Source of the DNA: an uncultured Holophagales bacterium
GTDB taxonomy: Bacteria > Acidobacteriota > Thermoanaerobaculia > Multivoradales > UBA5704
Length of the DNA stretch: 64,000 nucleotides
Reading direction: 5' to 3'
Assembly: GCA_963842525.1 (NCBI GenBank)
Contig: CAWJGT010000020.1
Span: 1-64,000, forward strand
The number at the start of each line of letters is the position of its first letter. Positions within the stretch are counted from its first letter, which is position 1. Position numbers and translations under genes: made by a program. Shown here one piece after another: positions 23,034 through 64,000 of this stretch. The notes under the pieces were generated by a model. The model worked only from the letters and a program-made list of their open reading frames with translations. It made no database searches and had not been told where the DNA came from.

Positions 23034-23336
23034 ATGGTTTGCCCTGTGTGTGGGTTGGAGTCGGTGGAGGGGATTTGCGGTTGCTTCGAGTCGGATCCGG
23101 CGCTGGCCGATGAGGCCGGGGCCGGAGCAGAGGATGGCATCTTCCTGCCCCTTGTCGCGAGCGGGGACGTGGTTTTCTTCTCCAAGGTGACGTCGCGCCT
23201 GGAGGCGATGGGGATCGCGTGGTTCGTGCAGGAAGAAGAGTCGGTGGCGGTGATCTACGCCGCGGCGGAACGGCTGGACGAGGCGCAGGCGGTGGTCCAG
23301 GACCTCAGCCTCGTCGGAGCGGGCGCCAGCTCCTAG
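23034..23336 (+). CDS. Small protein with N-terminal CxxC Zn-knuckle and DUF2007-like domain
   Basis: AGGAGG RBS at 23022; MVCPVCG; SRLEAMGIAWFVQ...IY...ERLDEAQAVV. Confidence 0.6.
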   Translation: MVCPVCGLESVEGICGCFESDPALADEAGAGAEDGIFLPLVASGDVVFFSKVTSRLEAMGIAWFVQEEESVAVIYAAAERLDEAQAVVQDLSLVGAGASS

Positions 23337-27323: not shown

Positions 27324-27813
27324 CCACGGGACCCTGGACGCTCCCTGCGGTGGCTCACGGTGGTCCCGCGGCGCCGGCAGGTTTCACCACGGGACCAGGG
27401 ACGTTCCCTGCGGTGGCTCCCAGTGGTCCCGCGGCACCGGCAGGTCTCACCGCGGGACCATAGACGTTCCCTGCGGTGGCTCACGGTGGTCCCGCGGCAC
27501 CGGCAGGGTTCACCACGGGACCATGGACGCTCCCTGCGGTGGCTCCCAGTGGTCCCGCGGCACCGGCAGGTTTCACCACGGGACCAGGGACGCTCCCTGC
27601 GGTGGCTCCCAGTGGTCCCGCGGCACCGGCAGGGTTCACTACGGGACCATGGACGCTCCCTGCGGTGGCTCCCAGTGGTCCCGCGGCACCGGCAGGGTTC
27701 ACCACGGGACCCTGGACGCTCCCTGCGGTGGCTCCCAGTGGTCCCGCGGCACCGGCAGGAGCCACCACGGGACCATGGACGCTCACTGCGGTGACTCGCA
27801 ATGGTCCCGCGGC
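27324..27813. repeat. Tandem array of ~7.8 copies of a 63-bp unit (3 x 21-bp subunits) with internal inverted repeats
   Basis: Units start at 27324, 27387, 27450, 27513, 27576, 27639, 27702 and 27765; consensus CCACGGGACCATGGACGCTCCCTGCGGTGGCTCCCAGTGGTCCCGCGGCACCGGCAGGGTTCA. Confidence 0.95.
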
Positions 27814-27907: not shown

Positions 27908-30900
27908 GTGACCGACCCCTCCCGCTCCGACCTCCCCGAAGGCATCGCCCTCATCGGCATGGCCGGCCGCTTCCCTGGCGCACCGGACCTCCACCAATTC
28001 TGGCGCAACCTGCGGGACGGCATCGAGTCGATCTCCTTCCTCTCCCGCGAGGTGCTTCTGGCCGCCGGGGTGGAGCCGGCTCTGCTGGACGACCCTCGGT
28101 TCGTGCCGGCCGGTGGAGTGCTGCCCGGGATCGATCTGTTCGACGCGGCGTTCTTTGGCTTCGGCCCTCGGGAGGCCGAGATCATGGACCCGCAGCAGCG
28201 GGTCTTCCTGGAGTGTGCTTGGGAGGCCCTGGAGTCGGCGGGGTACGACAGCGAGCGCTATCGCGGCTCGATCGGCATCTTCGGCGGGATGGGGATGAGC
28301 ACCTATCTGCTGCGGAACCTCATCTCTCATCCGGATGTGCTGGCGGCGGCCGGGCCGCTTCAGATGCGGATCTTCAACGACAAGGACTTCCTGGTGTCGT
28401 TGGCGGCCTTCAAGATGGGCCTGACCGGGCCGAGCATCAGTGTGCAGACGGCTTGCTCGACGTCGCTGGTGGCCGCCTGTCTGGGCTGCCAGGCCCTTCT
28501 CACCTTCCAGTGCGACATGGTTTTGGCCGGCGGCGTGACGATCGCTCTGCCGCAGGGGGGCCAACTGCCGATGGAGGGGGTCTCTTCGCCGGATGGCCGT
28601 TGCCGGGCGTTCGATGCCAGCGCTCAGGGGACGGTGCCGGGGAGCGGGGCCGGCGTGGTGGTGCTCAAGCGGCTGGCGGATGCGATCGAGGACGGCGACA
28701 CGATCCGCGCGGTGATCAAGGGCTTTGCCACGAACAACGACGGGGCCTTGAAGCTGGGCTACACGGCGCCGGGGGTGGAGGGGCAGATCGAGGTGATCGC
28801 CATGGCCCAGGCGGTCGCGGGCATCCGGGGCGATTCGATTACCTATGTCGAAGCGCATGGGACGGGGACGCCGCTGGGAGATCCGATCGAGGTGGAGGCG
28901 CTGACCGAGGTGTTCCGGTCGGCCACGGACCGGACGGGCTACTGCGGTCTGGGGTCGGTCAAGACCAATATCGGACACCTGGACACCGCCGCGGGTGTGG
29001 CGAGCCTGATCAAGACGGTGCTGGCGATGGAGCACGGGGTGATCCCGCCAAGCCTGGGCTTCGAGCAGCCGAATCCGCAGATCGATTTCGCCAGCACACC
29101 GTTCTATGTGCCCACCGAGGCGCGGGAGTGGCGGACGGACGGTTTCCCTCGACGCGCAGGGGTGAGCTCGTTTGCCATCGGCGGCGTCAACGCTCACCTG
29201 GTGCTGGAGGAGGCGCCGGCGCTGGCGCCCTCCGATCCTGCGCCCCCCTGGCTGCTTCTGGTGCTGTCGGCGCGGACGGAGACGGCTGTGGAGAGGGCGA
29301 CGGAGAATCTTGTCCGGCTCCTTCGCGAGCAACCTGCGGGCGGGACGCCCGCGGTCCCAGGGGTGGCGGATGTGGCCTATACGCTTCAAGTGGGCCGGAG
29401 GGCGTTCGCCCAACGTCGGGCTGTGGTCTGCCGGAACCGGGAGGAGGCGATCGCGGCCCTGGAAGCGCGGCGCTTTCTCGACGGAGCGGAGGAGCCCCGC
29501 AAAGAGACAATCGATCCGGCGCCCTTGCTGGAGATGCGGGATCCCCGCGAGGAGCTGACCGCCCTGGGCCGGGCCTGGCTCGCCGGAGCCCGTGTGGAGT
29601 GGTCCTCCCTCTGGGCCGGACAGAACCGTCGCCGAGTCCCGCTGCCCACCTATCCTTTCGAAAGACAGAGATATTGGATCGAGCCGGCCCTCCTCGCCCA
29701 GGGTTCACACCCTGGGCTACCGAATGACGCCCTCCGGGCTGGAGATACCCAGGATTCGAGAGCCCGGAGGGCGGACTGGGTAGCCCAGGGTGTGAACCCT
29801 GGGCGCGGGCGGCGGCCCGCCCCCGCCCGCGCCTCCCGAACGCCCATGTCGAGCCGCGCGACGACCGCGAGCGCGCAGTCGCCGAGGCCATGCGGGACCT
29901 GCTGGGGCTCGACCGGGTCGGCCTCTACGACAGCTTCTTCGATCTGGGCGGCGACTCGCTCATGGCGACCCGGCTGATCTCCAGGCTGAACGAGAGCTTC
30001 GGGTCCGATCTCACCTTGAAGGCGGTTTTCGAGGGACCTGCCGCGGCCGACCTGGCGCTGCGGATCGTGCCGGCGTGTCCTGTTGTCAACCAGGGAATCG
30101 GACGGCTGCCGCGGGATGGACGGCCGATCCCGCTGTCCTTCGCCCAGCAGCGGCTCTGGCTGATCGACCAACTCGCACCGGGGCATCCCGCCTACAACAT
30201 TCCGGCCGCTGTGCGCCTGACGGGCCGTCTCGATCGGGCGGTGCTGGCGGCGAGCCTCACCGCGGTGGTGGCGCGGCATGAAGCATTGCGCACCACGTTT
30301 CCGACGGTCGACGGCCGGCCGCTCCAGCGTATCCATGAGATTGTCGAGGGTCCGCCGTTCGACCTGCCGCTGGTCGATCTCGCAGCATTGCCGGACCCGG
30401 GGCCAGAAGTTCGCTGCCTGGGGGAGGAGATCCTGGTGCGCCCGTTCGATCTGGTCCGCGGTCCGCTGGTGCATGGCATCCTGCTGCGCCTTGGCACGGA
30501 GGACCACGCGGCGCTCATGGTGATGCACCACATCGTCTGCGATGCCTGGTCGATCGGCGTACTGATCGACGAGCTGGCGGCGCTCTATCCCGAGTTGGCC
30601 GCAAGGCGGCCGTCGCCTTTGCCGCCGCTGCCGGTGCAGTATGCGGACTTCACGGTCTGGCAGCGGGAGCAGCTCACCGGTGCAACGCTCGAAGCTCAGC
30701 TCGGCTACTGGCACGAGCGGCTGGCGGACGCTCCGCCCCTCCTGGAGCTTCCGGTCGACCGGCCACGGCCGGCGCTGCCGAGCGGGCGTGGGTTCGTGCG
30801 CCAGGAGGTCTTCCCGGCACGGCTCGCGGCAGATCTGGGGACCCTTGCGCGGCGCGAGGGAGCGACGCTGTTCATGGTCCTTCTCGCCGCGTTCGCGGCC

Positions 30901-33468
30901 TGGCTCCACCGTCTGACCGGCCACGACGATCTCGTCGTGGGGACGCCGATCGCCAACCGCACCCGCCCCGAGCTGGAGGGCTTGATCGGCTTCTTCGTCA
31001 ACACGCTGGCCCTCCGGACCGACCTCTCGGGCGCTCCGACGTTCCTCGATCTGGTCGGCCGCGTCCGCGAGGCGGCGCTCGGTGCCTATGCCCATCAGGA
31101 CCTCCCGTTCGAGCGGCTCGTCGAGGATCTGGCGCCGGAACGCTCCGCCGCGGGGGCTCCGCTGTTCCAGGTGATGCTCCTGCTGCACAACACCCCGCTC
31201 AAAACGCTGGAGCTGCCCGGCCTGCGCCTGAGTCCCTTCGATTTCGAGGCGAGCACGGCGAAGTTCGACCTCACTCTCTCGTTCCTCGAGAGCGAGGCGG
31301 GGCTCGAAGCCTTCCTGGAGGCCAGCAGCGACCTCTTCGACGAGCCCACTGCGGTCCGGATGCTCGGCCAGGTCCGCGAGCTGCTGGAAGGCGCGGCAGC
31401 CGGCCCCGGGCGCCGGCTCGAAGACCTGCCGCTCCTATCCGCGGCGGAGCAGGCCCAGCTCCTCGTCGAATGGAACGACACGGTGGCTTCAGAGCCGGCA
31501 GGGCGTGGGGTCCACGAGATCGTCGCCGCACGGGCACGGGAGAACCCGACCGCCACCGCGGTGGCCTGGGAGGGTGGGCGGCTGACATATGCCGAGCTGC
31601 ACGATCAGGCGGCGCGGCTCGCCCGCCATCTGGCGCGTCTGGGGGTCGGCCCCGAGGTGCTCGTGGGCGTCTGCCTCGACCGGTCTCCGGATCTGGTGAC
31701 GGCGGTGCTGGGGGTCCTCCTGGCGGGCGGCTCCTACGTGCCGCTCGATCCCAATGATCCGCCTGAACGCCGGGCCGCGTTGCTGGACCGGGTGGCGCCG
31801 GCGGTGCTGCTGACGCGGCGGAGCTTGTGGAAATGGGGACCTCACCCCCTGTCCCCCTCTCCCATCTCCCTTCCACCCCCCGCCGGGAGAGGGGGGACGC
31901 AGGCGGAGCCGTTTGGTGAGCTCGCCACAGAGGCATCAACGACGTCCCCCCTCTCCCGGGGCTGGGCGGGTGGGAGATGGGAGAGGGGGACAGGGGGTGA
32001 GGATCCGCCGTCTCCGCCACCGCTTGTGGTCTGGATGGACGATCAGCTCCCCGATAGGGAAGAAATCGAGCTGCGGCAGGCCGATCCTTCGAGCCTGGCC
32101 TACGTCATCCACACCTCGGGCTCAACCGGCGAGCCCAAGGGCGTCTGCATCGACCACGCCGGCCTCCTGCGGCTGGCGGCGTGGTACCGGCGGGCCTTCG
32201 ACCTGGGACCCGGGGACCGGTGCTCGCTGGCGGCGGCTCCCGTCTTCGACGCTTCGGTCCTGGAGATCTGGCCCTGCCTCACGGCCGGCGCGGCTCTCTG
32301 CATCCCCCCGGAGGAGGTCCGCCTCTCTCCCGGCCGTCTCGTGCGCTGGATGGCGGAGGAGCGGATCACCGTCTCGTTCCTTCCGACCCCGCTGGCCGAG
32401 GCGGTGCTGGCCGAAGATTTCGCGGGCCTCGGGCCATCTCTTCGGGTGCTCCAGACGGGCGGCGACCGGCTGCGGTGCCGGCCGCCCGCTGAGCTTCCGT
32501 TCCCGCTGGTGAACCTCTACGGACCGACCGAGGTGACGGTCGTCACCACCGGCGGCCGGGTGGAGGCGATCGGCCGGCCGGAGCTGCCGCCGATCGGCCG
32601 GCCGATCGGGCACACGGCTGTCCGTGTGCTGGACCCGGCCCTGCGGCCTCTGCCGATCGGCGCCGCGGGCGAGCTGTGGATCGGCGGCCCGCGGGTGGCC
32701 CGCGGCTACCTGGGCCGGCCGGATCTCACGGCCGAGCGCTTCCGGCCTGATCCCTGGGGCGAGCCCGGCTCCCGCATGTATGGCACCGGCGACCGGGTGC
32801 GCTGGCTGCCCGACGGCCGGCTGGAGTTCCTGGGCCGGCTCGACGCACAGGTGAAGATCCGCGGCGTCCGGCTGGAGCCCGGGGAGGTCGAGGCGGCGCT
32901 GCGGCAGCATCCGGGAGTACGGGACGCGGCGGTCGTGGCGCGCCAGGACGGCCGCGGCGGAGCTCGGCTGGTGGCGTTCGTCGTCCCCGCGGGGAAGGAG
33001 GATCTGCCCGCTGACTGGCGGACCTTCCTGCGGACGCGCCTGCCGGATCACGCCGTCCCCTCGGATTTCGTTCTCCTGGAGGCCCTGCCGGTCACGAGCT
33101 CCGGCAAGGTGGACTGTCGGGCCCTGGCGCGCTGGGAGCTCGGGCCGGACAGCGGTTCGGGCGCTCCGGAATACGTCGCGCCGGCCTCGCCGTTCGAAGA
33201 GTGGCTGGCGGATGCCTGTGCGACGCTGCTCGGCCGGGAGCGGGTGGGGATGCGGGACAATTTCTTCCATTTGGGCGGGCATTCCCTGCTGGCTGCCCAG
33301 CTCGTCGGCCGGTTGCGCGAGGAATGGCAGTTCGATGTGCGCCTCCAGACGGTCTTCGAGACGACAACCCTGGCTGAGCTGGCGGAGCGCATCCTCCAGC
33401 ACGAGTTGGATCAGGTCGACTCCGAGGCCTTGACGGCGATCCTGGAAGACCTCGGGAGCCTGGGGTAG
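27908..33468 (+). CDS. Hybrid PKS/NRPS gene A: KS-(no AT)-ACP-C-A-PCP (frameshift between 29728 and 29810)
   Basis: VQTACSTS, EAHGTGT, KTNIGHLD; FFDLGGDSL; HHIVCDAWS; YVIHTSGSTG, NLYGPTE, TGD, SGKVD; FFHLGGHSL. Confidence 0.9.
29335..29362. repeat. Intragenic REP-like element, family B (GCGGGCGRGACGCCCGCGGTCCCAGG), post-KS region of gene A
   Basis: Hairpin GCGGGCG-GGA-CGCCCGC; translated AGGTPAVPG; matches 35011 and the arms at 50262. Confidence 0.8.
29695..29805. repeat. Intragenic REP-like doublet, family C, KS-ACP linker of gene A
   Basis: 27-bp perfect outer arms CGCCCAGGGTTCACACCCTGGGCTACC/GGTAGCCCAGGGTGTGAACCCTGGGCG plus 13-bp inner arms CGCCCTCCGGGCT/AGCCCGGAGGGCG. Confidence 0.92.
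31840..32002. repeat. Intragenic REP-like doublet, family A (163 bp), A2-A3 region of the gene A A domain
   Basis: CCTCACCCCCTGTCCCCCTCTCCCATCTCCC...GGGAGATGGGAGAGGGGGACAGGGGGTGAGG; translated PHPLSPSPISLPPPAGRGG...GGRWERGTGGE. Confidence 0.92.
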
Positions 33469-33565
33469 GATTCGCTGGCTCCGGGGGGGTGAAGCTCCGG
33501 GGTTCCCGCCCGCGTTTGATCCCTTTGGGCTTCTTCGGGAAGATTCGCCGCACTTCATAGATGTC

Positions 33566-36500
33566 ATGAGCCAGCCGCACGACAAGGCCCCAGAAACCGC
33601 CGAAGGCATTGCCATCATCGGCATGGCTGGCCGTTTCCCGGGCGCGGCCGACCTCGACCGGTTCTGGCGCAACCTGCGGGATGGCATCGAGTCGATCTCC
33701 TTCCTCTCCCGGGAGGAGCTTTTGGCGGCCGGCGTGGAGCCGGTCCTGCTGGACGACCCCCGATTTGTTCCCGCCGGCGGCGTGCTGCCCGGCATCGAGC
33801 TGTTCGACGCTCCGTTCTTCGGCTTCGGCCCGCGCGAGGCCGAGATCATGGACCCGCAGCAGCGGGCGTTCCTCGAATGCTCCTGGGAAGCCCTGGAGTC
33901 GGCGGGCTACGACACGGACGGCTACAGGGGGTCGATTGGCATCTTCGGCGGCATGGGGATGAGCAGCTACCTGCTCCGGAATCTCATCTCGCATCCCGAC
34001 GTGCTGGCCGCCGCCGGGCCGCTCCAGATCCGCATCTTCAACGACAAGGACTTCCTTGTCTCGCTGGTCGCCTTCAAGATGGGGCTCACCGGGCCGAGCA
34101 TCAACGTCCAGACCGCCTGCTCGACGTCGCTGGTGGCGACCTGCCTGGCCTGCCAGGCGTTGCTCAACTTCCAGTGCGACATGGCCCTGGCGGGCGGGGT
34201 GACGATCGCGCTGCCCCAGGCGGGCCAGACGCCGATGGACGGGGTCTCTTCACCGGACGGCCACTGCCGGGCCTTCGACGCCAGGGCCGAGGGGACGGTA
34301 GGGGGGAGTGGTGCCGGGGTGGTGGTGCTCAAGCGCCTGGCCGACGCGATCGAGGACGGCGACACGATCCGGGCGGTCATCAAGGGCTTCGCCACGAACA
34401 ACGACGGCTCGCTCAAGGTGGGCTACACCGCCCCTGGAGTGGAGGGTCAGATCGAGGTGATCGCCATGGCCCAGGCGGTTGCGGGCATCCGGGGCGATTC
34501 GATCACCTACGTCGAAGCGCACGGGACCGGCACGCCGCTCGGGGACCCGATCGAGGTGGAGGCCCTGACGGAGGTCTTCCGATCGGCCACGGACCGGACA
34601 GGCTATTGCGGGTTGGGATCGGTCAAGACCAACATCGGCCACCTGGACACGGCGGCAGGCGTGGCGAGTCTGATCAAGACAGTGCTGGCCATGGAGCACG
34701 GTGTGATCCCGCCGAGCCTCGGCTTCGAGCGGCCCAACCCGCAGCTCGATCTGGTGAGATCGCCGTTCTACGTGCCGACCGCGGCGCGGGAGTGGCGGAC
34801 GGACGGCATTCCCCGGAGGGCCGGCGTGAGCTCGTTCGCCATCGGCGGGATCAACGCCCACCTGGTCCTGGAGGAGGCGCCCGCGCTGGTGCCCGCGCTG
34901 GTGCCTGCCGACCCGCCTCCGCCCTGGCATCTGCTGGTGCTGTCTGCACGGACGGAGACGGCTCTGGAGAGGGCGACTGAGAATCTGGTCCGGTATCTCC
35001 GGGAGCAGCCTGCGGGCGAGACGCCCGCGGTCCCAGGGGTGGCGGACGTGGCCTATACGCTCCAGGTGGGCCGAAGGGCATTTCGCCACCGCCGCATCCT
35101 GGTCTGCCGGGATCGGGAGGATGCGATCACGGCCCTGGAAGCACGGCGCTGGCTCGACGGAGCGGCCGAGCCCCGGGATGAGACGGTCCAGCCGGAACCG
35201 TTCACAGCGATGAGCGACCCGCGGATGGAGCTGACCGCCCTCGGCAAGCTCTGGCTCTCGGGAGCCCGCATCGACTGGTCCTCCCTCTGGGCCGGACAAA
35301 GACGCTGTCGCATCCCGCTGCCCACCTATCCTTTCGAACGCCAACGCTACTGGATCGATCCCGCGAGACCAGCGGCGGCAACGCCTGCGTCCCCCCTCTC
35401 CCGGGAGGCGGGGGGGCGATGGGAGAGGGGGACAGGGGGTGAGGCCCGCCCCCGCCCGCGCCTCCCGAACCCTTACGTCGAGCCCAGGGACGACCGCGAG
35501 CGGGCCGTAGCCGACGCCGTGCGTGACCTCCTGGGCCTCGATCGGGTCGGCCTTTACGACAGCTTCTTCGATCTGGGCGGCGACTCGCTGATGGCGACCC
35601 GCCTGGTGTCCCGCTTGAACGAGACCTTCGGGTGCGGCCTCACCCTGAAGGCGGTCTTCGAGGGTCCCGCGGCGGCCGACCTGGCGCTGCGCATCGAGGC
35701 GCGGGAGCCGGCCGCTTCGGTCCCTGAAGAGGCTCTGCCTGCGGGTCCCTCTCCGATCGAACGCCTGCCGCGGGACGAACGTTCCAGACATACCTTCCCG
35801 CTCTCCTTCGCCCAGCGGCGGCTCTGGTTCCTCGACCAGCTCGCCCCGGGAGACCCGTTCTACAACGTCCCGGCCGCGTCCGAGCTGCTCGGCCCGCTCG
35901 ACCCCGCGATCCTCGCCCGGTGCTTCGAAGAAATCGTCCGCCGCCATGAGACGCTGCGCACCACCTTCGGCGCGGCGGACGGCGAGCCCTTCCAGACAAT
36001 CGGTGATCCACGCCCCTGGATGCTGCCTCTGGTCGACCTCGGCGCATTGCCGGAAGAGGCCGGCCGGACCGAGTTGGAGAGACTGGTGCGCGACGAGGTG
36101 CGCAGGCCGTTCGATCTGGCGCGCGGGCCTCTCCTCCGGACACTCCTGCTCCGGCTGGAGCCCGACCGGCACGCCATCCTGATGACACTCCATCACATCG
36201 TCACCGATGGCTGGTCGAACACCGTGCTCCTGCGGGAGATGCTGGCCCTCTACGAAGCTTTTGCCGCGGGCCGGCCGTCACCTCTTCCCGCCCTGCCCGT
36301 CCAGTACGCCGACTTCGCGGTCTGGCAGCTTCGGCAGCTCGAAGAGGGCCTGCTGGCGGACCAGCTCGCCGCGTGGAAGGAAAACCTGGAAGGACTGCCG
36401 CCGGCCCTCGAGTTGCCGGCCGACAGGCCGCGTCCGGCCGTCCAGGGATTCGCGGGTGCCCAGGTTCCGGTCCGCATCGCGGCCGAGCTGACGGAGGCGC

Positions 36501-54300: not shown

Positions 54301-57300
54301 GTTTCCGTCCGGACGGCAGGATCGAGTACCTGGGGCGCATCGACCACCAGGTCAAGATCCGCGGGCTCCGCATCGAGCCGGGGGAGATCGAGGCCGCGAT
54401 CCTCGGCCATTCAGTCGTCAAAGAAGCGGTGGTGGTGGCCCGCGAGGACCGGCCGGGCGACCGCCGCCTGGTGGCCTATCTGGTGCCGGGACAGGGGGAA
54501 TTGCGCATCGAGGATCTGCGGGCCTCCCTCCGCGCGCGGCTCCCCGAGCACATGGTGCCGTCGGCCTTCATGGTGCTGGAAGCCTTGCCGTTGACCGCGA
54601 ATGGCAAGCTCGACCGCCGGGCTCTCCCAGCTCCGGAGGGAAGACCACGGGCCGCGAGTGTCCCGCCGCGCACCGAGGCCGAGCAGGCCATCGCCGGCGC
54701 CTGGCGCGAGGCGCTCGGGCTGGAGGCGGTCGGGGTCGACGAGAGCTTCTTCGATCTGGGCGGCCATTCGCTCCTGGCCACGCGGGTGCTCTCCCGGATC
54801 CGGGAGGCGTTCCGGGTGGACCTGCCGCTGCGCGCCCTCTTCGAGGAGCCGACCGTGGCCGGTCTCGCCCGGCGGATCGAGGCGGCCGTCCAGGGGCCAC
54901 ATCTCCCGAGCCTGCCGATCGTTCCGATTCCGCGCGTGGGTGCCTTGCCGCTCTCCTTCGCACAGCAGCGGCTCTGGTTCCTCGATCAGCTCGAGCCCGG
55001 CGCCCCCCTCTACAACATCCCCGCGGCCCTGCGCGCCACCGGACCGCTCGACGTCCCTGCCCTGACGCACGCCCTCGGCGAGGTCGGCCGTCGTCACGAG
55101 GCCCTGCGGACGACCTTCGCCTCGGTGGAGGGGGCGCCGGTGCAGGTCGTCCAGCCGCCGTCCGCCTTCTCTCTGCCGGTCGTGGACCTCTCCGGTCTCG
55201 CAGAGCCTGAAGGGCCGGTGCTCGGGCTCGCGGCGAAAGAGGCCCTCCGGCCCTTCGACCTGGCGCAGGGACCGGTCTGGCGCGCTCTCTGCCTGCGGCT
55301 CGGCCCGGCCGACCACGTCCTCCTCGTCACCATGCATCACATCGCGAGCGACGGCTGGTCGATGGGCATCCTGGTCCGCGAGGTGCTGACACTCTACGGA
55401 GCGCATTTACCCCTGCCCGAGCTGCCGGTGCAGTACGCCGACTACGCCCTCTGGCAGAGAGACCGGCTCCAGGGCGATCTCCTCCAGAATGAGCTGGCGT
55501 ACTGGCGCGAACAGCTCGCCAGCCTGCCGGCGCTGGAGCTGCCGACCGACCGGCCGCGCCCCGCCATCCGCAGCCATCGCGGCAGCAACCGACCGGTGGA
55601 GCTGGGGGCCGACCTGACGGCCGGCCTGCGCCGTCTCGCCCGCCGCGAGGGGACCACGCTCTTCATGATCCTGCTCGCCGCTTTTGAGGCCCTGCTCGCA
55701 CGGCACAGCGGCCAGCGCGACCTGGCGGTGGGGAGCCCCATCGCGGGCCGGGAGCACCTGGAGATCGAGGGGCTGATCGGCTTCTTCGTGAACACCCTGG
55801 TCCTGCGCGGCGACCTGTCCGGAGATCCGCCGTTCCGCACCCTGCTCGCCCGGGCGCGCGAGACCGTCCTCGCGGCCCACCTCCATCAGGAAGTCCCCTT
55901 CGAGAGGCTGGTCGAAGAGCTGGAGCCGGACCGGAGCCCCAGCCGCACCCCCCTGTTCCAGGTGATGCTCTCGCTCGGCAATGCGCCGCGCGACATCCCC
56001 GAGACGCGGGGCCTGCGGCTGTGGCGCATGGATGCGGCCGAGATCCTCCCTCCGGTCGCCCGCTTCGATCTGAGCCTGGCTCTCGAAGAGCGGGAGGGTG
56101 GGCTCTCGGGTGTGTGGGAGCACAGCGCCGAGCTGTTCGACGCCACCACGATCGCCCGCATGGCGGGCCATCTGGAGAGGCTGCTCGCGGCTGTGGTCGC
56201 TGATCCCGGGCTCCGCCTCTCCGAGCTGCCGCTGCTCGGCGAGGTGGAGCGGCACCAGCTCGCCCTGGCGTGGAACGACACGACCGCGCCGGCTCCTCCG
56301 GACCTCCTCGTGCACCAGCTCTTCGAGGCCCAGGCGGAACGGCAACCCGAGGCGATCGCCTTGCGGCAGGGGAGCGAGGTCCTGACGTACGGCGAGCTGG
56401 CCGCCCTCTCCCATCGCCTGGCCCACCACCTCCGGCGCCTTAGGGTCCGTCCCGAGGAGCCGGTCGGGGTCTGCCTGGAACGGGTCCCACTGCGCATCGC
56501 GGCTCTCCTCGCGGTACTCCAGGCCGGCGGCGTCTATCTCCCGCTGGACCCGGCCTATCCGCGGGCGCGCCGCGAGCTCATGCTGCGCGATTCCGGGGCG
56601 CGGGTGCTGCTGACCTCCGGATGGCTGGCGACGCTGGGCTGGCCTGTCCCCAGGGTCGTTCCGCTGGACGAGATCGGGGCGGAGCTGGCCGCCGAGAGCC
56701 TCCAGTCCGCCGGCCGGAGCCGTGCGGCCCGAGATCCTGGCGTACATCCTCTACACCTCGGGGTCGACCGGCACGCCGAAGGGAATCGGGGTCGACCACG
56801 CCGCCGCCGTCGATCACTTCACGACGATCGTTCGTGCCTACGGGCTCGTTCCCGAGGATCGGGTGCTGCAGTTCGGGGCGCCCGGCTTCGATGTCTCCCT
56901 GGAGCAGATCCTCCCCACGCTGGCAGCCGGGGCCACGCTGATCCTGCCGCGCAACGAGCTGGTCAGCCCCGGCGAGCTGTTCTCCGTGCCTCCCGAGAGC
57001 GAGGTCACCGTCGTCAATGTGCCGACGGCCTATTGGCAGCAATGGGTCGGCGAGCTCGCCGACGGGAGAGCGCTTCCAGACCGGCTGCGGTTCGTGATCA
57101 CCGGCGGCGAGGCCATGGCGCTCGAATCGGCGCGTCTCTGGGCCGCGCTCCCCGGCAGCGGGCGGGTTCCGATGTTCAATGGCTACGGTCCGACCGAGGC
57201 GGTCGTGACCGCTACGATCGTCCCTCTCGGAGGCGACGGTCCCGGCGCTCCGGCGACGGTGCCGATCGGCTGGCTGCTCGCTCGCCGCACCGCCTGGGTG

Positions 57301-60300
57301 CTCGACCATGACGGCCGGCTCATGCCGCCGGGAGCCCATGGCGAGCTCTGCCTGGGCGGCGTGCTCGCTCGCGGCTATATCGGGCGGCCCGACCTGACGG
57401 CCGAGCGCTTCGTGCCGCACCCGTGGGGCGAGCCCGGGGCGCGGCTCTACCGGACCGGCGACCTGGCGCGGTATCTCCCCGATGGGAATCTCGAGTTCCT
57501 GGGACGGCTGGACGAGCAGGTGAAGGTCCGCGGTTTCCGCATCGAGCTGGGGGAGGTCGAGGCGGTCCTGGCCAGCCATCCCGCGGTGCGGGAGGCGGTG
57601 GTCCTCGCCATCGCGGACGGCCAGGGGGGCCGCAGGCTGGCGGGATTTGTCGTTCCCATCCCGGACGCCGCGGTCGCGCCGGCCGATCTGCGCGAGCACC
57701 TCCGGGAGCGCCTGCCGGACTACATGGTCCCCGGCGCCTTCTCGGTCATGGAATCGCTGCCGCTCACGCCCCACGGCAAGGTGGACCGGCGAGCCCTGGC
57801 CCACATCGCCCCGACGCCCTTATTGGCCGGGGAGGAGCACGCGGCCCCACGCGGCCCCGTCGAAGAGATCGTGGCGGCCCTCTGGGCCGACGTGCTGGGG
57901 ACCGACCGGATCGGCCGTGGCGACGGGTTCTTCGAGCTGGGAGGCCACTCGCTCCTGGCGACCCAGGTGGTCTCGCGGGTGCGCAAGACCCTGGGGATCG
58001 AGATCCCCCTGCGGGCCCTCTTCGAGGCGCCCACCCTGAGCGGCTTCGCCGGGAGAGTGGCCCGGGAGATCGAGGCCGGAAGCCGGACTGCCGTGCCGCC
58101 GATCCCCTCCCTGCCAAGGCGCCCCGGCGAGCGCTTCCCCCTGTCCTTCGCCCAGCAGCGGCTCTGGTTCCTGGATCAGCTCGAGCCCGGCTCCGCGGTC
58201 TATAACCTGCCGCTCGCGATCGATCTTTTTGGGCCTCTCGATGTGTCTGCGCTCGCCCGCGCCCTGGCCACGATCGCACTCCGTCACGACGCGCTGCGCA
58301 CGACCTTCCCCGCCGAAGATGGCAACCCGGTGCAGGTCGTCGCGGAGCTTCGGCGTCCCGTGCTCCCGGTGATCGACCTGACCGGCGTCGAAGGAGCCGT
58401 GGACACGGTCGCCGGAGAGCTGGCCCGCCGGCCGTTCGACCTGGAACGGGGCCCTCTCCTGCGCGCGTGCCTCCTGCGGGTGGAGAAGGAAGCGCACCGG
58501 CTCGTCGTGAGCATGCACCACATCGTGAGCGACGGCTGGTCGGTCGGCGTGTTCGCCCGCGAGCTGAGCGCGCTGTACGAGGCCTTCCGGGCCGGCCGGC
58601 CCTCTCCGCTGCCCGAGCTGCCGGTGCAGTACCCGGCCTTTGCGGTCTGGCAGCGGCAGTGGCTCGCGGGCGAGGTTTTGGACACGGAGCTGGCGTACTG
58701 GCGCGAGCAGCTTCACGGCCTGCCGCGCCGCCTGGAGCTGCCCGAGGACCGTGCCTGGAGGCGCCGGCGCGGAGCCGCGCGCGGAGGTCTCCGCCCGGTG
58801 GTTTTCTCCGAGGAGCTGGGGCGCCGCCTGCGAGAGCTCGCCCGCGCCGAGGGAGCGACGTCGTTCATGATCCTGCTGGCCGGCTTCCAGGCGCTCCTCG
58901 GCCGCTGCGCCGGGCAGGAGGATTTCGCCGTCGGCACCCCCGTCGCCGGGCGCTCCGCGGCCGAGCTGGAGGGGCTGATCGGCTTCTTCGTCAACACCCT
59001 GGTGCTCCGCGCCGACCTGGCAGGGGAGCCGGGTTTCCGTGCCCTCCTGCGGCGGGTTAGGGAGCGTGTTCTGGCGGCGCAGGCCCACCAGCACCTCCCG
59101 TTCGAGAAGCTGGTGGAGGAGCTGGAGCCCACGCGAAGCCTGGAGCACGCCCCCCTGTTCCAGGCCATGCTCGCCTTCCAGAACACGCCCCGCGAGACGT
59201 TGGACCTGCCCGGCCTCCTCACCATTCCGGTCGATGTCCATACCGGGACGGCCAAGCTCGATCTCCTCCTGTCCCTGGAGGAGGTCGACGGCCGCATCGC
59301 CGGCGCCCTGGAGCACGACGCGGACCGCTTCGACGCCACCACGATCGACCGCCTCCTGGCGTGGTACGAGGCGCTCCTCGCCGCCGCGGTGGCCGCTCCG
59401 GAACGGCCGGTCTTCGACCTGTCGCTGCTGTCTGCCGCGGAGAGTCACCAGGTGCAGGTGGAGTGGAACGACCGCGGAGGGGTCGAGCCCGGCTGGACGC
59501 TCCTGCACGAGGGCTTCGAGCGACAGGCGCAGCGCACGCCCGAGGCGATAGCCCTGGTCTGGGGTCAGGAGCGCCTCACGTACCGCGACCTCAACGAGAA
59601 GGCTGACCGCCTGGCCGAGGAGTTACGCCGCCGCGGAGCCGGTCCGGAGCGGGTGGTCGGGATCTCCCTCCCGCGCACCCCCGAGATGATCGTCGCCATG
59701 CTCGCCGTCCTTAAATCCGGGGCCGCCTATGTCCCCCTCGATCCATCCTACCCACCGGACCGGATCGCGTTCATGACCGACGACGCAGGTGTGAGCCTGA
59801 TCCTCACCTCCGAGGGTGGATTGGGGGACAAGCCCCAAAGGGGCGCCGGCATAAAGCCTGGGGTTTCAACCCCAGGTCGGCGGCTTGAGGATTCAGGCTG
59901 CCCCTATCCTGGGGTTGAAACCCCAGGCTTTATGCCGGCGCCCCTTCGGGGCTCCGAGGTCGCCTACCTCATCTACACCTCCGGCTCCACCGGCCGCCCC
60001 AAGGGCGTCGCCATCGAGCACGCCAGTGCCGTCCGTCTCGTCGCCTGGGCTTTGGAAGCTTTTTCTCGCGAAGAGCTGTCCGGTGTCCTCGCCTCGACCT
60101 CGATCAACTTCGACCTGTCGATCTTCGAGATCTTCGTCCCCCTCTCCTGCGGTGGGGCTGTGATCCTGGCCGACGATGCCCTTGCCCTGCCATCCCTGTC
60201 CGCGATGGGGGAGGTGACCCTGGTCAACACGGTGCCGTCCGCCATGGCCGCGCTGCTCGACCTGGGGCCGCTCCCACCCTCGATTCGCACCGTCAACCTG

Positions 60301-63300
60301 GCGGGCGAGCCGCTGCGGCGCGCTCTGGCCGAGCGGGTATATGGGTCGGGTGTGGAGAGGCTATGGAATCTCTACGGCCCGTCCGAAGACACGACCTACT
60401 CGACCGGCTCTGTGGTCGAGCGGGGCCGAAATCCTCACCCCCTGACCCCCTCTCCCATCTCCCTTCCACCCCCCGCCGGGAGAGGGGGAACATATCCGAA
60501 GCCATTCGGCGGGCTCGCCACGGGGGCATCAACAACGTCCCCCCTCTCCCGGGGATGGGAGGGTGGGAGATGGGAGAGGGGGACAGGGGGTGAGGACCCA
60601 CGGCCTGAGCCGTCCATCGGCCGCCCCGTCGCCGGCTCCCTGGCGTACGTGGTTGATGCTTCTCTCCGTATCCAGCCCTTCGGTGTGCCGGGCGAGCTGT
60701 GTCTGGGTGGAGGAGGGGTGGCTCGGGGCTACCTCGGCCGGCCGGAGCTGACGGCTGAGCGGTTCGTGCCGGATCCGTTCGGTGTGGCTCCCGGCGGCCG
60801 GCTCTACCGGACCGGCGACCGGGTGCGCTGGCGAACGGACGGGTCGCTCGACTACCTGGGCCGGCTGGACCGGCAGGTCAAGATCCGCGGGTTCCGGATC
60901 GAGCCGGGAGAGATCGAGGCGGTCCTGCTCGCCGGTCCCGGGGTCGAGGCGGCGGCGGTGCTGCCCCGCGGCGGCACCCTCGTGGCCTATGTGGTGGCTG
61001 CAACGGGCACCGGAGAGCTGCGGGCGTGGTTGGCCGGCCGGCTTCCGGCGCCCTTGGTGCCCTCGACGTTCGTCCGGCTCGATGCGCTGCCACTGACTCC
61101 GAACGGCAAGGTGGACCGCTATGCTCTCGCCCGCATCGCTCCGACCGTGGAGGCCCGGGAGCTCGCGGCTCCCAGCGGTCCGATCGAGGAGACCCTGGCG
61201 GCGATCTGGAGCGAGGTCCTCGGCATCGATCGGATCGGCGCCGGCGACTCCTTCTTCGACCTCGGCGGGCACTCCCTTCTGGCCACTCGCGCGCTGGCCC
61301 GGGTGCGCGAGGCCTTCCAGATCGACCTGCCGTTGCGCGACCTGTTCGAGGCGCCGACGGTCCAGGAGCTGGCCCGCCGGGTGGAGGCGGCTCTGGGCGG
61401 GGCTGCCGCACCGGCTCCGCCGATCGTCCCGGTCTCCAGAGAAGAGGACCTGCCGCTCTCCTTCGCGCAGCAGCGGCTCTGGCTCATCGACCAGCTCGAA
61501 CCCGGCGGCTCGGTCTACAACGTCTCCCTGGCACTGCGGCTGGATGGCCCCCTCGACCCCGAAGCCCTGGCCCGCGCCTTCTCCGAGGTGGCTCGCCGGC
61601 ACGAGGTCCTGCGGACCACCTTCGCGGTGCGCCACGGCGATCCGGTCCAGGTCATCGGGCCGCCATTGCCCATCCCCCTGCCGGTTCTCGATCTGACCGG
61701 GCTGCCTGAGCCGGTACGGTCGGCCGAGGTCAGGCGGCAGGCTCGCGAGGAGGGCGCTCGGCCTTTCGACCTTGGGACGGGTCCGCTGCTGCGGGCCGGC
61801 CTCCTATGGCTCGGCAGCGAAAGCTGGGTCCTGCTCGCCACCCTGCACCACATCGTGAGCGACGAGTGGTCGCTGCGCCTGCTCTTCCGTGAGCTGACCG
61901 TGCTCTATGCCGCCTTCCGGCAGGGGCTTCCGTCACCTCTGCCCGAGTTGCCCGTGCAGTTCGCGGACTTCGCGGTCTGGCAGCGTCGCTGGCTTACAGG
62001 AGACGTCCTGGAGGCGCAGCTCGCCTACTGGCGCGGACGGCTGGGGAGCGATCCACCTGTGCTGGAGCTGCCCACCGACCGGCCGCGGCCGTCGCTCCAG
62101 ACCTTCCGCGGCGCCCGCCTCGGCTTTTCTCTCCCGGCCGGGGCCTCTGCCGCGCTGCAGGCTCTCGGCCGCCGGCGGGGCGCGACATCGTTCATGACCC
62201 TGCTCGCCGCGTTTCAGGCCCTACTGGCGCGCACCAGCGGGCAGACCGACCTCACCGTGGGCACCCCGATCGCCGCCCGGCACCGCGTCGAGGTCGAGGA
62301 TCTGATCGGGTTCTTCCTCAACACCCTGGTCGTGCGGGCCGACCTGTCCGGCGATCCGGGGTTCCTGGAGATCCTCGGCCGGGCGCGCGAGCGGTCCCTG
62401 GAGGCCTTCGCCCACCAGGATCTGCCCTTCGAGAAGCTCGTCGACGAGCTGAAGCCGCGCCGCAGCCTCAGCCATCCGCCGCTCTTCCAGGCCCTGTTCG
62501 TCCTCGTCCACGCCGCGCGGCTGGAGGCGGAGTCGCTCGACATCCGGCTGAGTAACCTCGACTCCGAGGTCTCGACCGCCAAGTTCGACCTCACCTTGTC
62601 CCTGCTGGCCGATGGCGAGGCCCTCTCGGGCGTGATCGAATTCAACACCGACCTGTTCGACCGCACGACCGTGCTGCGCCTGGCCACGCATCTGGCGGTG
62701 CTGTGCGATGCCGCGGCGCGCGATCCGGAGCAGCCTCTTTCGGCCCTGCCGCTCCTCGCCGCGGCCGAGGAGCACCAGGTCAGCTTCGAGTGGAACGATA
62801 CGGCAGTGCCGGGCCGGGCGGAGGTCCCGGTCCACCGGCTGTTCGAGGCCTGGGTGGAGAAGGCGCCGGATCGGCCGGCGGTGATCTGGGACGGTGGGGT
62901 CTGGACCTACGCGGACCTCGACGGCCGGGCGGCGCGGCTGGCCCGCCGTCTCCGGTCGCTCGGCATCGGCCCCGAAGTCCCGGTGGGAGTCTGCGCCGAG
63001 CGCGGCCCAGAGCTGTCGGTCGCCCTGCTGGCGGTGCTCAAGGCGGGAGGCGCCTACCTCCCGGTCGATCCGCGCTACCCGCGCGAGCGCCAGGCGTTCA
63101 TGCTGGCCGACGCCGGGGCGCCGGTCGTGCTCGTGCAGGAGGCCCTTGCTGGCTCTCTCGCGGAGCACACGGGGAGGACCGTCCTGCTGAACGACGACGC
63201 CTGGAGCGGCGAGGCCCTGGAGACAGCGGTGCCTCATCTCGGCCCGGAGCAGATGTGCTATCTCATCTACACCTCGGGCTCCACGGGCCGGCCCAAGGGG

Positions 63301-64000
63301 ATCGCCCTGACGCACCGGACCCTGACCAACCTCGTGCGCTGGCAGGTCGATCCCGGCCGCGCGGCGGCCACGGCCAGCCCGGCGCACACTCTCCAGTTTG
63401 CCTCGCCGAGCTTCGACGTCTCCCTCCAGGAGCTGTTCTCGACCTGGGCGAGCGGCGGCGCTCTTGTGCTGATCACCGAGGACGACCGGCGCGATCCGGA
63501 ACGGCTGGCCGCGCGCCTGGCCGAAGGGAAGGTCGAGCGCCTGTTCCTCCCCTACGTGGCCCTCCAGCAGCTCGCGGACGTCCTCGCCAGGACCGACACC
63601 CCGCTTCCCGGCCTGCGGCAGGTCGTCACCGCGGGCGAGCAACCGCAGACGACGCCGCAGCTCGCCGAAGCCTTCCGGCGGCTCTCGGCGTCGACCGGCG
63701 GGGCCGGCGGAACCACCCTGCACAACCAGTACGGTCCGTCCGAGACCCACGTCATCACCGAGCTCGTGATGGAAGGCGATCCGGCAGGCTGGCCGGCGCT
63801 GCCGCCCATCGGCCGGCCAATTGCCAATGCGCGGACGTACGTCCTCGACCGCTCTTTGCGGCCGGCGCCGATCGGCGTGCCCGGGGAGCTGGTCCTGGGC
63901 GGCCTCCTGCCGGCGCGCGGCTACCTCGGCCGGCCGGACCTGACGGCGGAAAAATTCGTCCCAGATCCCTGGAGCGCAGAGCCGGGCGCGCGCGCCTACC
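42354..64000 (+). CDS. Multimodular NRPS gene C, at least 7 C-A(-PCP) modules, runs off the window end (frameshifts near 43860, 45890, 47260, 47301, 47690, 49920, 56700)
   Basis: ATGA overlap with gene B; C domains at ~42.4, 45.4, 48.6, 51.8, 54.9, 58.1 and 61.5 kb; GGHSL PCPs; hand-read A codes Ala, Ala, Val, Ser, basic?, Ala, Pro-like; frame open from ~56730 to the end. Confidence 0.9.
42803..42847. repeat. Intragenic REP-like element, family A variant, C domain loop after HHIVVDF
   Basis: CCCTCTCCCCCTGGCCCCCTCTCCCGCAGGAGCGGGGGAGGGGGA; translated PLPLAPSPAGAGEGE; starts like the 51656 element. Confidence 0.75.
44055..44107. repeat. Intragenic REP-like element, family A, immediately before the A3 motif
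   Basis: TCCCCCTCTCCC..GATGGGAGAGGGGGCCAGGGGGTGAGG; translated PPLPAVGGRWERGPGGE-VAYLIYTSG. Confidence 0.9.
47102..47301. repeat. Intragenic REP-like multi-hairpin element, family C, immediately before the A3 motif
   Basis: Outer arms AGCCCCGTAGGGGCGGCCGGAATTAGCCCGGG / CCCGGGCTAATTCCGGCCGCCCCTGCGGGGCT; inner AGCCCCGCCAGGGGCG / CGCCCCTAACGGGGCT; frame is broken here as assembled. Confidence 0.92.
50262..50330. repeat. Intragenic REP-like doublet, family B, just before the A3 motif
   Basis: 28-bp perfect arms CCCTGGGACCGCGGGCGTCCCGCCCGCA / TGCGGGCGGGACGCCCGCGGTCCCAGGG with a 13-nt loop; translated PWDRGRPARTIQKNAGGTPAVPG. Confidence 0.93.
51656..51805. repeat. Intragenic REP-like doublet, family A variant, PCP-C linker
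   Basis: CCCTCTCCCCCTGGCCCCCTCTCCC..GGGAGAGGGGG ... CCCCTCTCCC..GGGGGAGGGGTCGGGGGAGGGGG; read in frame. Confidence 0.85.
59831..59953. repeat. Intragenic REP-like doublet, family C, immediately before the A3 motif
   Basis: 46-bp arms with 1 mismatch: AGCCCCAAAGGGGCGCCGGCATAAAGCCTGGGGTTTCAACCCCAGG / CCTGGGGTTGAAACCCCAGGCTTTATGCCGGCGCCCCTTCGGGGCT; 123 bp, in frame. Confidence 0.94.
60433..60595. repeat. Intragenic REP-like doublet, family A (163 bp), after the A5 motif
   Basis: Near copy of 31840-32002 including its spacer; translated PHPLTPSPISLPPPAGRGGTYPKPFGGLATGASTTSPLSRGWEGGRWERGTGGE. Confidence 0.93.

Follow-up and report, generated by a model that had tools for sequence, protein, structure and literature searches.

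Dispersed palindromic repeats lie in frame within megasynthase genes of an uncultured Holophagales bacterium

Introduction

Palindromic repeats that are read as part of a protein are reportedly known from Rickettsia, where the Rickettsia palindromic elements (RPE) are said to have been described in frame inside protein-coding genes by Ogata and colleagues in 2000. REPIN-RAYT systems, composed of hairpin-forming doublets of repetitive extragenic palindromic (REP) sequences and REP-associated tyrosine transposases, were reportedly introduced by Bertels and Rainey in 2011. Here we describe 14 hairpin-forming repeats of three families (A, B and C) within the genes of a hybrid polyketide synthase/non-ribosomal peptide synthetase (PKS/NRPS) assembly line of an uncultured Holophagales bacterium. 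The analysed stretch of DNA, called the window in the following, comprises positions 1 to 64,000 of contig CAWJGT010000020.1 (assembly GCA_963842525.1). Passages of Di Nocera et al. (2013; PMC3733652), which deal with REPs of the GTAG and CGTC types, mention RPE-1, -4 and -6. Adenylation (A) domains of NRPSs can be interrupted by auxiliary domains between the conserved motifs A2 and A3, A4 and A5 or A8 and A9 (Labby et al., 2015, as cited in passages of PMC8097286), and Acido-Lenti-1 (RF01687), a family listed in Rfam as small RNA (sRNA), is termed a family of unknown function in parts of a 2026 preprint. We consider it probable that the repeats described here are selfish and dispersed, have been filtered by selection for the reading frame into permissive loops of their host proteins, and would then be translated.

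Results

The region from 27.9 to 64 kb of the window was identified by Pfam matches and by repeats with the period of a module as a PKS/NRPS assembly line with the order ketosynthase (KS); (acyl carrier protein, ACP)-condensation (C)-A-thiolation (T); KS-ACP-C-A-T; and then eight more C-A-T modules. Coding sequence was called by a six-frame codon-usage Viterbi track, which assigned 84.7% of the genome as coding and replaced a greedy open reading frame (ORF) caller that covered 76% of the genome and mishandled overlapping frameshifted ORFs. All 14 elements reported in the initial annotation were recovered at, or within a few bases of, the positions given there, and its count of 12 elements that keep the reading frame was corroborated by ORFs, codon track and encoded peptides. 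The two others, both of family C, change the frame from f1 to f0 (29687-29813) and from f1 to f2 (47102-47301).

The family A unit measures 55 nt (CCTCACCCCCTGnCCCCCTCTCCC...GGGAGAGGGGG) and has an 11-bp stem with a loop of about 21 nt. Full elements consist of two inverted units about 45 nt apart (31840-32002, 39459-39608 and 60433-60596), solitary units are found at 35392-35444, 37124-37176 and 44056-44107, and a variant subfamily with the head CCTCTCCCCC is present at 42803-42850 and 51653-51804. An nhmmer profile built from nine window units detected ten units in the window, nine within the cluster and one outside at 35-85. The family B unit is a 26-nt GC hairpin, found singly at 29336 and 35012 and as an inverted pair at 50263-50331. 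Since both single copies lie in paralogous KS-linker sequence, they probably represent one event that was copied together with the module. Family C splits into three related subfamilies, C1 (47102-47301), C2 (29687-29813) and C3 (59831-59953). The elements are given below with their evidence in brackets; Y1 refers to Y1 transposases (PF01797), and reference positions are those of a C-A-T reference module on which both flanks were mapped.

29336-29361, plus strand: single 26-nt family B unit, post-KS region, in frame, paralogous to 35012 (B unit search).
29687-29813, unstranded: family C2 element resembling a MITE (miniature inverted-repeat transposable element) or REPIN, KS-ACP linker, frame f1 to f0 (inverted arms; 64 near-full genome copies; both flanks of Y1 gene C14:204236; RF01687 match 29697-29740; codon track).
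31840-32002, unstranded: full family A element, A2-A3 loop, in frame, native loop kept with 121 nt remaining (60-nt arms, 90% complementary).
35012-35037, plus strand: single family B unit, post-KS, in frame (B unit search).
35392-35444, minus strand: single family A unit with the G-rich strand coding, KS-ACP linker, in frame, at the position that the C2 element takes in the paralogous module.
37124-37176, plus strand: single family A unit with the C-rich strand coding, C-A linker, in frame (between reference positions 438 and 451).
39459-39608, unstranded: full family A element, C domain after HHxxxDG, in frame (between reference positions 141 and 151).
42803-42850, plus strand: variant family A unit with CCTCTCCCCC head, C domain, in frame (68 blastn matches, 8 near full length; continuous f2 track).
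44056-44107, minus strand: family A unit, a 5'-truncated full element standing in place of the native A2-A3 loop directly next to AYLIYTSGSTG, in frame f0 (same junction at C30:22459 and C9:1337226).
47102-47301, unstranded: family C1 MITE/REPIN-like element, A2-A3 site, frame f1 to f2, ORF 45902-47266 stops inside (28 near-full copies; 85-87% identical to both flanks of Y1 gene C32:133626; RF01687 on both arms).
50263-50331, unstranded: family B inverted pair in place of the A2-A3 loop, of which 15 nt of native sequence remain, in frame (between reference positions 546 and 591).
51653-51804, unstranded: variant full family A element, T-C linker, in frame (between reference positions 1023 and 1).
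59831-59953, unstranded: family C3 MITE/REPIN-like element, A2-A3 site, in frame (46-nt arms, 98% complementary; flanks of Y1 genes C9:225386 and C3:199401; RF01687 on both arms).
60433-60596, unstranded: full family A element, post-A5 loop, in frame, no element at this site in the A-domain paralogues at 44.6 and 47.8 kb (between reference positions 755 and 757).
35-85, minus strand: family A unit at the beginning of the contig, not part of the cluster and upstream of a GDSL lipase gene.

The domain sites named in the initial annotation were borne out on the reference module for the C domain after HHxxxDG (39454), the C-A linker (37119), the post-A5 loop (60433), the T-C linker (51653) and the A2-A3 loop (31836, 44051, 50260 and 59847), whereas 47102 was assigned to the A2-A3 site by alignment with paralogues and 42803 to the C domain by its position in ORF 41793-44105. 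Five elements carry the tail GGTGAGG on the coding strand, read four times as GE and once as VR. The absence of repeats from the approximately 20 other genes of the window held in so far as the repeat catalogue described below contains no locus there, with the exceptions of the contig-end copy (18-93) and a local tandem repeat. The latter, a 63-nt unit in 7.8 copies with 92% matches, extends over 27324-27813 directly upstream of the first KS gene and is non-coding according to the codon track. In the two paralogous PKS modules, the C2 element (29687-29813) and the family A unit (35392-35444) occupy the same position of the KS-ACP linker and are both followed by homologous CCCGCCCCCGCCCGCGCCTCCCGAAC.

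When the family A profile was searched over the 9.95-Mb genome, 734 units at 477 loci were detected, comprising 247 inverted pairs and 222 single units. Families B, C1, C2 and C3 are dispersed through the genome as well, with 98 copies of the family B unit (up to 3 mismatches), eight of them inside megasynthase coding segments. For an unbiased catalogue, 15-mers occurring at least six times in non-coding DNA were collected, yielding 1083 loci, of which 7 located at contig ends and 40 of more than 600 nt were set aside. Among the 1036 classified loci, 896 were intergenic-like. Megasynthase territory, defined as codon-track segments with phmmer matches to C or KS domains of the window or to both A and T domains, amounts to 1.174 Mb of the 8.43 Mb of coding sequence, leaving 7.26 Mb of other coding and 1.52 Mb of non-coding sequence. 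In-frame, open repeat loci numbered 79 in megasynthase genes and 51 in other coding sequence, corresponding to about 67 and 7 per Mb, respectively, a difference of approximately 9.6-fold, compared to about 590 per Mb in non-coding DNA. Family A accounts for 63 of the 79 in-frame megasynthase loci and family B for 3, with 11 C-type loci and 2 of other kinds; the 79 fall into 74 groups by similarity of their flanks and are therefore not recent duplicates.

Within megasynthase genes, the reading frame is nearly always preserved. Among 72 loci with both flanks in megasynthase sequence, 69 were in frame and open, one was in frame with a stop codon and two changed the frame; with one third expected in frame, the binomial probability of 69 of 72 is 2e-29. 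Including loci with only one such flank, 79 of 89 were in frame. Element lengths delimited by nhmmer are not multiples of three, indicating that the frame is kept by the insertion or deletion as a whole and not by a property of the element. Length modulo three from nhmmer bounds was tried as a measure of frame preservation and rejected as uninformative. Genome-wide, the coding-strand GGTGAGG tail was read as GE in 34 cases, as VR in 12 and as TGA in none (n = 46), so that the earlier statement that the tail is never read as a stop codon extends beyond the window. Uninterrupted megasynthase ORFs of 10-17 kb carry 3-6 units each.

Pfam was run on 46 of the 49 distinct ORFs that host the 51 loci in other coding sequence; C9:1337028, C23:280771 and C23:282344 were left out, being already mapped to A domains. 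The hosts identified include AcrB, DnaE (within the PHP domain), Lhr, UvrD (twice), a RecQ locus, an MrfA-like helicase, PBP1 (transpeptidase domain), a Ser/Thr kinase domain, CHAT-TPR proteins and others, and for 10 of the 46 ORFs no Pfam family was found. The core-gene hosts with in-frame family A elements are located as follows.

C9:93880-97419, C9:710014-712998, C22:77779-81369, C3:819687-820880 and C1:608161-611346: DnaE, UvrD (two copies), PBP1, the Ser/Thr kinase domain and the AcrB-type transporter.

Mapped on the reference module, the 79 in-frame megasynthase loci are distributed as follows.

A2-A3: 36
T-C linker: 7
C domain after HHxxxDG: 5
Other C domain: 4
A4-A5: 4
A8-A10: 4
Post-A5: 3
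A-T linker: 3
Other: 5
Unmapped: 8

Thus, the element sites include all three positions at which A domains are interrupted by auxiliary domains. In 240 A domains with paired flanking matches, the A2-A3 loop carries a repeat in 33 cases and is free of elements in 207. The median loop length is 132 nt without and 198 nt with an element, and the length of element-bearing loops is a multiple of three in 32 of 33. Native sequence beside the element ranges from 2 to 205 nt (median 84); in seven cases it is at most 22 nt and the element therefore replaces the loop. Because the unit at 44056 retains part of the spacer of the full element, it is best described as a full element that lost its left arm along with the native loop. 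At the post-A5 site, three of six aligned paralogous A domains are empty and three are filled. Loop lengths that are not a multiple of three, equivalent to a frameshift within the loop, were observed in 10 of the 207 element-free A domains, two of them in the window (40919-40955 and 56690-56740), and the A2-A3 loop is thus also a common place for small insertions and deletions (indels).

Placing the insertion sites on protein structures, as had been suggested initially, was carried out for one A-domain insert. The A domain L019:14764-16296, part of an intact 16-kb ORF, matches LgrA with 618 bits in phmmer, with a 45-residue element-encoded peptide opposite the native A2-A3 segment of LgrA. An AlphaFold2 model, built with an alignment of 24 A domains from the same genome, reached a mean predicted local distance difference test (pLDDT) score of 85.4, a predicted template modelling (pTM) score of 0.83 and a TM-score of 0.87 to EntF. 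The element-encoded residues, approximately 111-155, have pLDDT values of 41-62 within the otherwise confident fold. Across the inserts, Pfam detected only AMP-binding and no folded auxiliary domain.

Family C differs from family A in its association with transposase genes. Family C elements are 123-200 nt long, have arms of 45-46 nt with 89-98% complementarity and occur in 28-64 near-full copies, which lies within the size, arm and copy-number ranges of MITEs and REPINs. The genome contains eight full-length PF01797 genes, each flanked by repeats of about 100 nt that are present in 17-55 copies. C1 is 85-87% identical over 95-98 nt to both flanks of the Y1 gene C32:133626, C3 matches the flanks of C9:225386 and C3:199401, and C2 those of C14:204236. 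The IS200/IS605 insertion sequence model NF033573 (cut-off 55 bits) was passed by five of the six Y1 proteins searched from the eight full-length genes, whereas none of these six passed the NCBIfam model REP_Tyr_transpos, with a best score of 27.3 bits against a cut-off of 80. RF01687 matched the window five times (40.3-51.2 bits, gathering score 37), on the arms of all three family C elements, at the following positions.

29697-29740
47102-47147
47256-47301
59831-59876
59908-59953

In inverted orientation, RF01687 brackets three of seven Y1 loci (L002 1394-2041; L003 1322-2035; L007 1239-2139). Genome-wide, at least 98 matches exceed the gathering score (98 of the 150 scored, from 2775 candidates), many of them as inverted pairs with a spacing of 150-190 nt. 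Family C therefore works like a REPIN/RAYT or MITE system and is best explained as REPIN/MITE-like and derived from small Y1 transposase elements of the IS200 type. Because the Acido-Lenti-1 motif forms inverted arm pairs of mobile-like repeats, within coding sequence and around Y1 genes, its arrangement in this genome points to a role at the DNA level, as a transposon end, rather than as a free-standing sRNA.

The initially proposed search for Y1 genes flanked by the repeats of the cluster is thereby positive for family C. For family A, no unit was found within 1.5 kb of the nine best PF01797 loci (11 weaker PF01797 matches lay outside this check). The family A unit of about 55 nt exceeds the size of classical REPs (20-40 bp), into which family B (26 nt) fits. 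A GTAG tag was not seen beside family A in a flank logo of 705 units, which displayed only a weak G-G-R-C preference outside the CCTCAC end. Exact CGTC/GACG was present in four of the nine window units of family A, with TGTC and CGTT variants in others. With 247 of 477 loci as inverted pairs and no adjacent Y1 gene, family A shares traits of CGTC REPs; it is REP-doublet-like and resembles in its behaviour the dimer-forming REPs without a transposase in PMC3733652, from which it departs in stem and loop size.

The family A core motif was detected in all five genomes of the same genus searched and in several other genera of the same family, and apart from one or two imperfect matches it was absent from the other searched families of the order. 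The junction composed of element tail, 0-24 nt and A3 motif was matched 16 times in this genome and 45 times in related genomes, 9 of 40 of which contained it, whereas the reversed control yielded none. By hand count from match coordinates and lengths, the tail of these 61 junctions is read as GE in 47, as VR in 14 and in the stop phase in none. Among the matches listed for the exact 22-base core of family A (GGGAGAGGGGGNCNGGGGGTGAGG) were metagenome-assembled genomes labelled Thermoanaerobaculia, Gemmatimonadota, Chloroflexota, Armatimonadota, Bacteroidota and others, with inverted pairs mainly in Thermoanaerobaculia and Holophagales records.

The window cluster itself is interrupted more often than the initial annotation conveyed, with about ten frame changes between 38.4 and 56.7 kb, nine of which are small indels remote from any element. 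Together with the two frame-changing family C elements (29687-29813 and 47102-47301), these nine small frameshifts add up to about 11 disruptions. The codon-usage track and tblastn with an intact module agree, as the residues of the reference module run on across the frame changes. The first two open segments and the disruptions, all on the plus strand, are listed below.

27908-29977: KS gene of the first PKS module, in frame f1 up to the family C2 element, where the frame is lost (matches to Pfam ketoacyl-synt N and C, CurL-like, KS-linker; codon track).
29890-33468: (ACP)-C-A-T open frame f0 (Pfam Condensation, AMP-binding, PP-binding).
38389-38391: one-base insertion (38390) inside the A8 motif (GYRIE-LGEVE), f1 to f2 (tblastn continuity q1480/q1481; sequence).
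40919-40955: frameshift f2 to f1 (about 40930) in an element-free A2-A3 loop, directly before A3 (codon track, tblastn, sequence).
42025-42273: two frame changes (about 42030 and 42260), f1 to f0 and f0 to f2, around a T domain (codon track, tblastn, sequence).
43846-43856: frameshift f2 to f0 (about 43850), 200 nt upstream of the 44056 element (tblastn, sequence).
45876-45893: frameshift f0 to f1 (about 45885) inside a C domain (tblastn, sequence).
47693-47711: frameshift f2 to f1 (about 47700) (tblastn, sequence).
49918-49929: frameshift f1 to f2 (about 49925) at a C/A boundary (tblastn, sequence).
56690-56740: frameshift f2 to f0 (about 56715) in an element-free A2-A3 loop, directly before A3 (codon track, sequence).

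The window cluster is probably decaying and no longer functional. Errors in the assembly of a repetitive region are a less likely cause of the frameshifts: the cluster region is indeed repetitive and the assembly consists of 34 contigs, but ORFs of up to 30,984 nt are open elsewhere in the genome, and the Pfam matches to cinA, ligT, plsY, gpsA, guaA, lgt and thiD, all within the first 27 kb of the window, are full-length. The sequencing runs listed comprised one soil metagenome, which contains 5% of the sampled words, and no RNA dataset. Low-depth contigs of this metagenome cover parts of 38.0-47.9 kb including 44052-44139, which comprises an element tail and A3. None of the eight pieces listed covers a frameshift site, with 53 further pieces outside this listing, and the reads neither confirm nor refute the frameshifts.

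Outside the cluster, a SIR2-like gene followed by an nSTAND1 NTPase with WD40 repeats occupies 18077-23190. The WD40 part changes frame (18972-21965 and 21838-23190), and the two genes look like a frameshifted defence-like gene pair. A DUF11 repeat protein (11923-14830) is likewise split over two overlapping frames, and a HepT-like ribonuclease gene of toxin-antitoxin type lies amid housekeeping genes at 7493-8119.

Discussion

The distribution of the repeats is probably best explained by selfish elements that are filtered by selection. Hairpin copies of families A, B and C would insert widely across the genome, and a copy within a gene would survive only if it is in frame, outside its single stop-bearing phase and located in a loop or linker that tolerates 10-60 additional Pro/Gly-rich residues. 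Suitable places, chiefly the variable A2-A3 loop, may be plentiful in multidomain and weakly constrained NRPS/PKS genes, which would for this reason accumulate copies at about ten times the per-Mb density of other coding sequence. The surviving copies would be translated as disordered surface loops, and later deletions may trim element and native loop back toward the native length, so that some elements now replace the native loop. In support of the permissive sink proposed in the initial annotation, 896 of 1036 loci are intergenic-like, 69 of 72 are in frame, the A-domain sites are known to accept insertions, and the modelled insert forms a low-confidence stretch. The NRPS-specific reading mentioned there holds as a difference in density and not in an absolute sense, since 51 in-frame loci reside in other genes. 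The decay of the cluster, which had been named as a finding that would undermine a functional interpretation, applies to the window cluster with its approximately 11 disruptions and not to the phenomenon, since intact ORFs of 10-17 kb elsewhere carry in-frame elements.

Several observations weigh against selection into permissive loops as a complete explanation. The 33 elements in A2-A3 loops, which together comprise approximately 32-35 kb, correspond to about 1000 per Mb, a density above that of non-coding DNA, which has no frame filter. The element tail lies 8 nt before the Tyr codon of A3 in 23 of the 61 junctions, resulting in a stereotyped right-hand junction, and the native remainder is shorter on the 3' than on the 5' side (median 18 versus 58 nt). 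Pure tolerance leaves the A2-A3 density and this junction unexplained, and passive tolerance alone may not be enough for the A2-A3 hot spot; a site preference, or a role at the edges of exchange units, is a possibility. Copies within genes show no greater decay than those between genes (nhmmer 35.0 versus 36.9 bits, p = 0.96; arm complementarity 0.87 versus 0.88, p = 0.24), and this equal preservation fits either recent insertion or maintenance. Orthologous empty sites were not found in 30 relatives and five same-genus genomes with the first module of the window and two element-rich megasynthase regions as DNA queries. These searches yielded only paralogue-like matches of 65-79% identity, in which neither insertion polymorphism nor target-site duplication was readable, and the insertions are therefore deduced from paralogues only. 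Furthermore, the coding calls derive from our own codon track and not from curated annotation, the genome (9.95 Mb, 34 contigs) scored 3.4% contamination, and the translation of the inserts is predicted from the sequence. The order of insertion and deletion, and the role of selection rather than targeting in setting the sites, are likewise conclusions that we infer.

A competing explanation holds that the repeats just upstream of A3 are preferred points of integration, deletion and crossover, i.e. portable and deletion-prone recombination sites whose A2-A3 copies set the 5' edge of A3-to-A10 exchange units and thereby drive the shuffling of NRPS specificity, with Acido-Lenti-1 as the end of a Y1-transposase element as a by-product; in a weaker form, the A2-A3 loop would be a true preferred integration site. 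We regard this explanation as unlikely, although one local case fits it. Five A domains (at 44056, 47102, 59831, C30:22459 and C9:1337226) are 0.81-0.93 identical from A3 onward for about 1.1 kb, whereas their upstream parts fall into two clades that are only 0.41-0.61 identical to each other right up to the element, and the step lies exactly at the element. The corresponding cassette regions, in which C domains and A1-A2 have diverged between the two clades, are the following.

43760-48100
59540-61000
C30:22160-23550
C9:1336930-1338100

The shared 1.1-kb cassette looks like a natural A-core exchange unit with its 5' edge at the A2-A3 loop, and according to passages of PMC8097286, natural exchange in microcystin synthetases most commonly concerns A3-A9 units. 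Since the junction elements of this case belong to different families (an A unit versus C MITEs), they cannot have served as homology for the exchange. Genome-wide, the nearest neighbour by the downstream segment bears an element for 14 of 33 element-bearing and 17 of 207 element-free A domains (p = 3e-6), compared to 8 of 33 and 19 of 207 by the upstream segment. Element presence thus follows the downstream more than the upstream segment, but 14 of 33 versus 8 of 33 is not a significant difference by itself. The recurrence of the stereotyped right junction in nine related genomes, the loop density above that of non-coding DNA, and the presence of different families at the same spot of paralogous modules (KS-ACP linker and A2-A3) would also agree with preferred sites. 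On the other hand, no common target sequence was seen adjoining the tails at other sites, and the discordance between upstream and downstream segments is no greater in element-bearing than in element-free A domains (median difference 0.056 versus 0.058, p = 0.79), with 2 of 33 versus 2 of 207 discordant pairs (p = 0.09; p = 0.74-1.0 at other thresholds). Hence, a use of the hairpins as recombination points, as contemplated initially, is not supported genome-wide, and a single local case in the window places the edge of an exchange unit at an element.

It is very improbable that the hairpins are kept for a function at the nucleic-acid level, such as stabilisation of the mRNA, pausing of transcription or translation for protein folding, or internal termination or attenuation. 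Their arms are as complementary within genes as between them, and many elements lie at domain or sub-domain boundaries. Yet the families are far commoner between genes and occur also in the unrelated dnaE, uvrD and PBP1 genes, one site can be occupied by different families, and 207 of 240 A domains manage without an element. Moreover, truncated single arms, which are unable to fold into the long hairpin, occur as commonly as pairs in megasynthases (22 singles versus 31 pairs). Similarly implausible, and already disfavoured, is the idea that the elements are confined to dead genes and that the in-frame appearance is a leftover of which nothing is translated: it would suit the window cluster with its nine small frameshifts, two frame-changing MITEs and 14 elements in 36 kb (several times the mean density of megasynthases), the other fragmented megasynthase regions of the genome and the 10 of 207 element-free A domains with a frameshifted loop, but without selection on the frame neither 69 of 72 frame-preserving loci nor 0 of 46 tails in the stop phase would be expected, the hosts include uninterrupted ORFs of 10-17 kb as well as dnaE, PBP1 and uvrD, and the housekeeping genes on the same contig are intact.

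About one in seven A domains of this genome (33 of 240) has an A2-A3 loop extended or replaced by a repeat-coded peptide. If selfish repeats are indeed filtered into permissive loops, they represent a natural insertion scan of NRPS/PKS architecture that shows engineers which loops accept, or can be swapped for, arbitrary stretches of 20-60 residues. For annotators, Pro/Gly-rich inserts and odd loop lengths in such genomes should be a warning of mobile-element scars. It also becomes testable whether the boundary of A-core exchange is set by protein tolerance alone or in addition by DNA repeats; if the crossover explanation were true, a selfish repeat family would shape natural-product diversity in this lineage and not be a mere passenger. 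In addition, a concrete hypothesis emerges from the family C elements for Acido-Lenti-1, an Rfam family that is abundant and has no known function.

Compared to known systems, the repeats appear alike in behaviour to RPE, and we do not claim membership: both are dispersed palindromes in frame inside ORFs of known proteins, read as an extra peptide and tolerated rather than obviously useful. They differ from RPE in the bacterial lineage, in the approximately 10-fold concentration in NRPS/PKS genes, in the dominant A2-A3 site and in the occasional replacement of the native loop. As in REPIN-RAYT systems, family C consists of two inverted arms that form one long hairpin in tens of copies, and its arms bracket a single-copy Y1 HUH transposase gene, one per subfamily. 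Unlike in REPIN-RAYT systems, five of the six Y1 proteins searched fit the IS200/IS605 model, and all six remain far below the REP-associated cut-off (27 versus 80 bits). Compared to the typical Acido-Lenti-1 RNA, the motif is distinguished here by its occurrence in inverted arm pairs of mobile-like repeats, in coding sequence and around Y1 genes.

The REPs described in passages of Di Nocera et al. (2013; PMC3733652) provide a close parallel for family A, since single GTAG and CGTC REPs and head-to-head dimers were found there within known ORFs, encoding 20-30 residues. The hosts in those passages include genes for DNA replication and repair, as do the hosts here with dnaE, uvrD, lhr and recQ, and the CGTC REPs have no dedicated transposase, as is the case for family A, while family C is similar to the Y1 genes described there with long inverted repeats on both sides. 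The stem of 8-9 bp and the loop of 4-5 nt given there differ from the 11 bp and approximately 21 nt of family A, and a bias towards NRPS/PKS hosts does not appear in those passages. Like the auxiliary domains of interrupted A domains in passages of PMC8097286, the repeats place foreign sequence between A2 and A3, A4 and A5 or A8 and A9 without destroying the A-domain fold. Unlike these folded auxiliary enzymes, they encode Pro/Gly-rich peptides of 17-80 residues with low AlphaFold confidence. Full-text literature searches, which extended to articles and not to the host-list supplement of PMC3733652 or other relevant supplements, returned no description of NRPS/PKS colonisation by REPs or MITEs, of an A2-A3 hot spot with loop replacement, or of a link between Acido-Lenti-1 and the ends of Y1-transposase elements. 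In-frame palindromic repeats in genes are thus already known from Rickettsia and from REP surveys, and it is their scale and specificity that are unusual in the genome described here.

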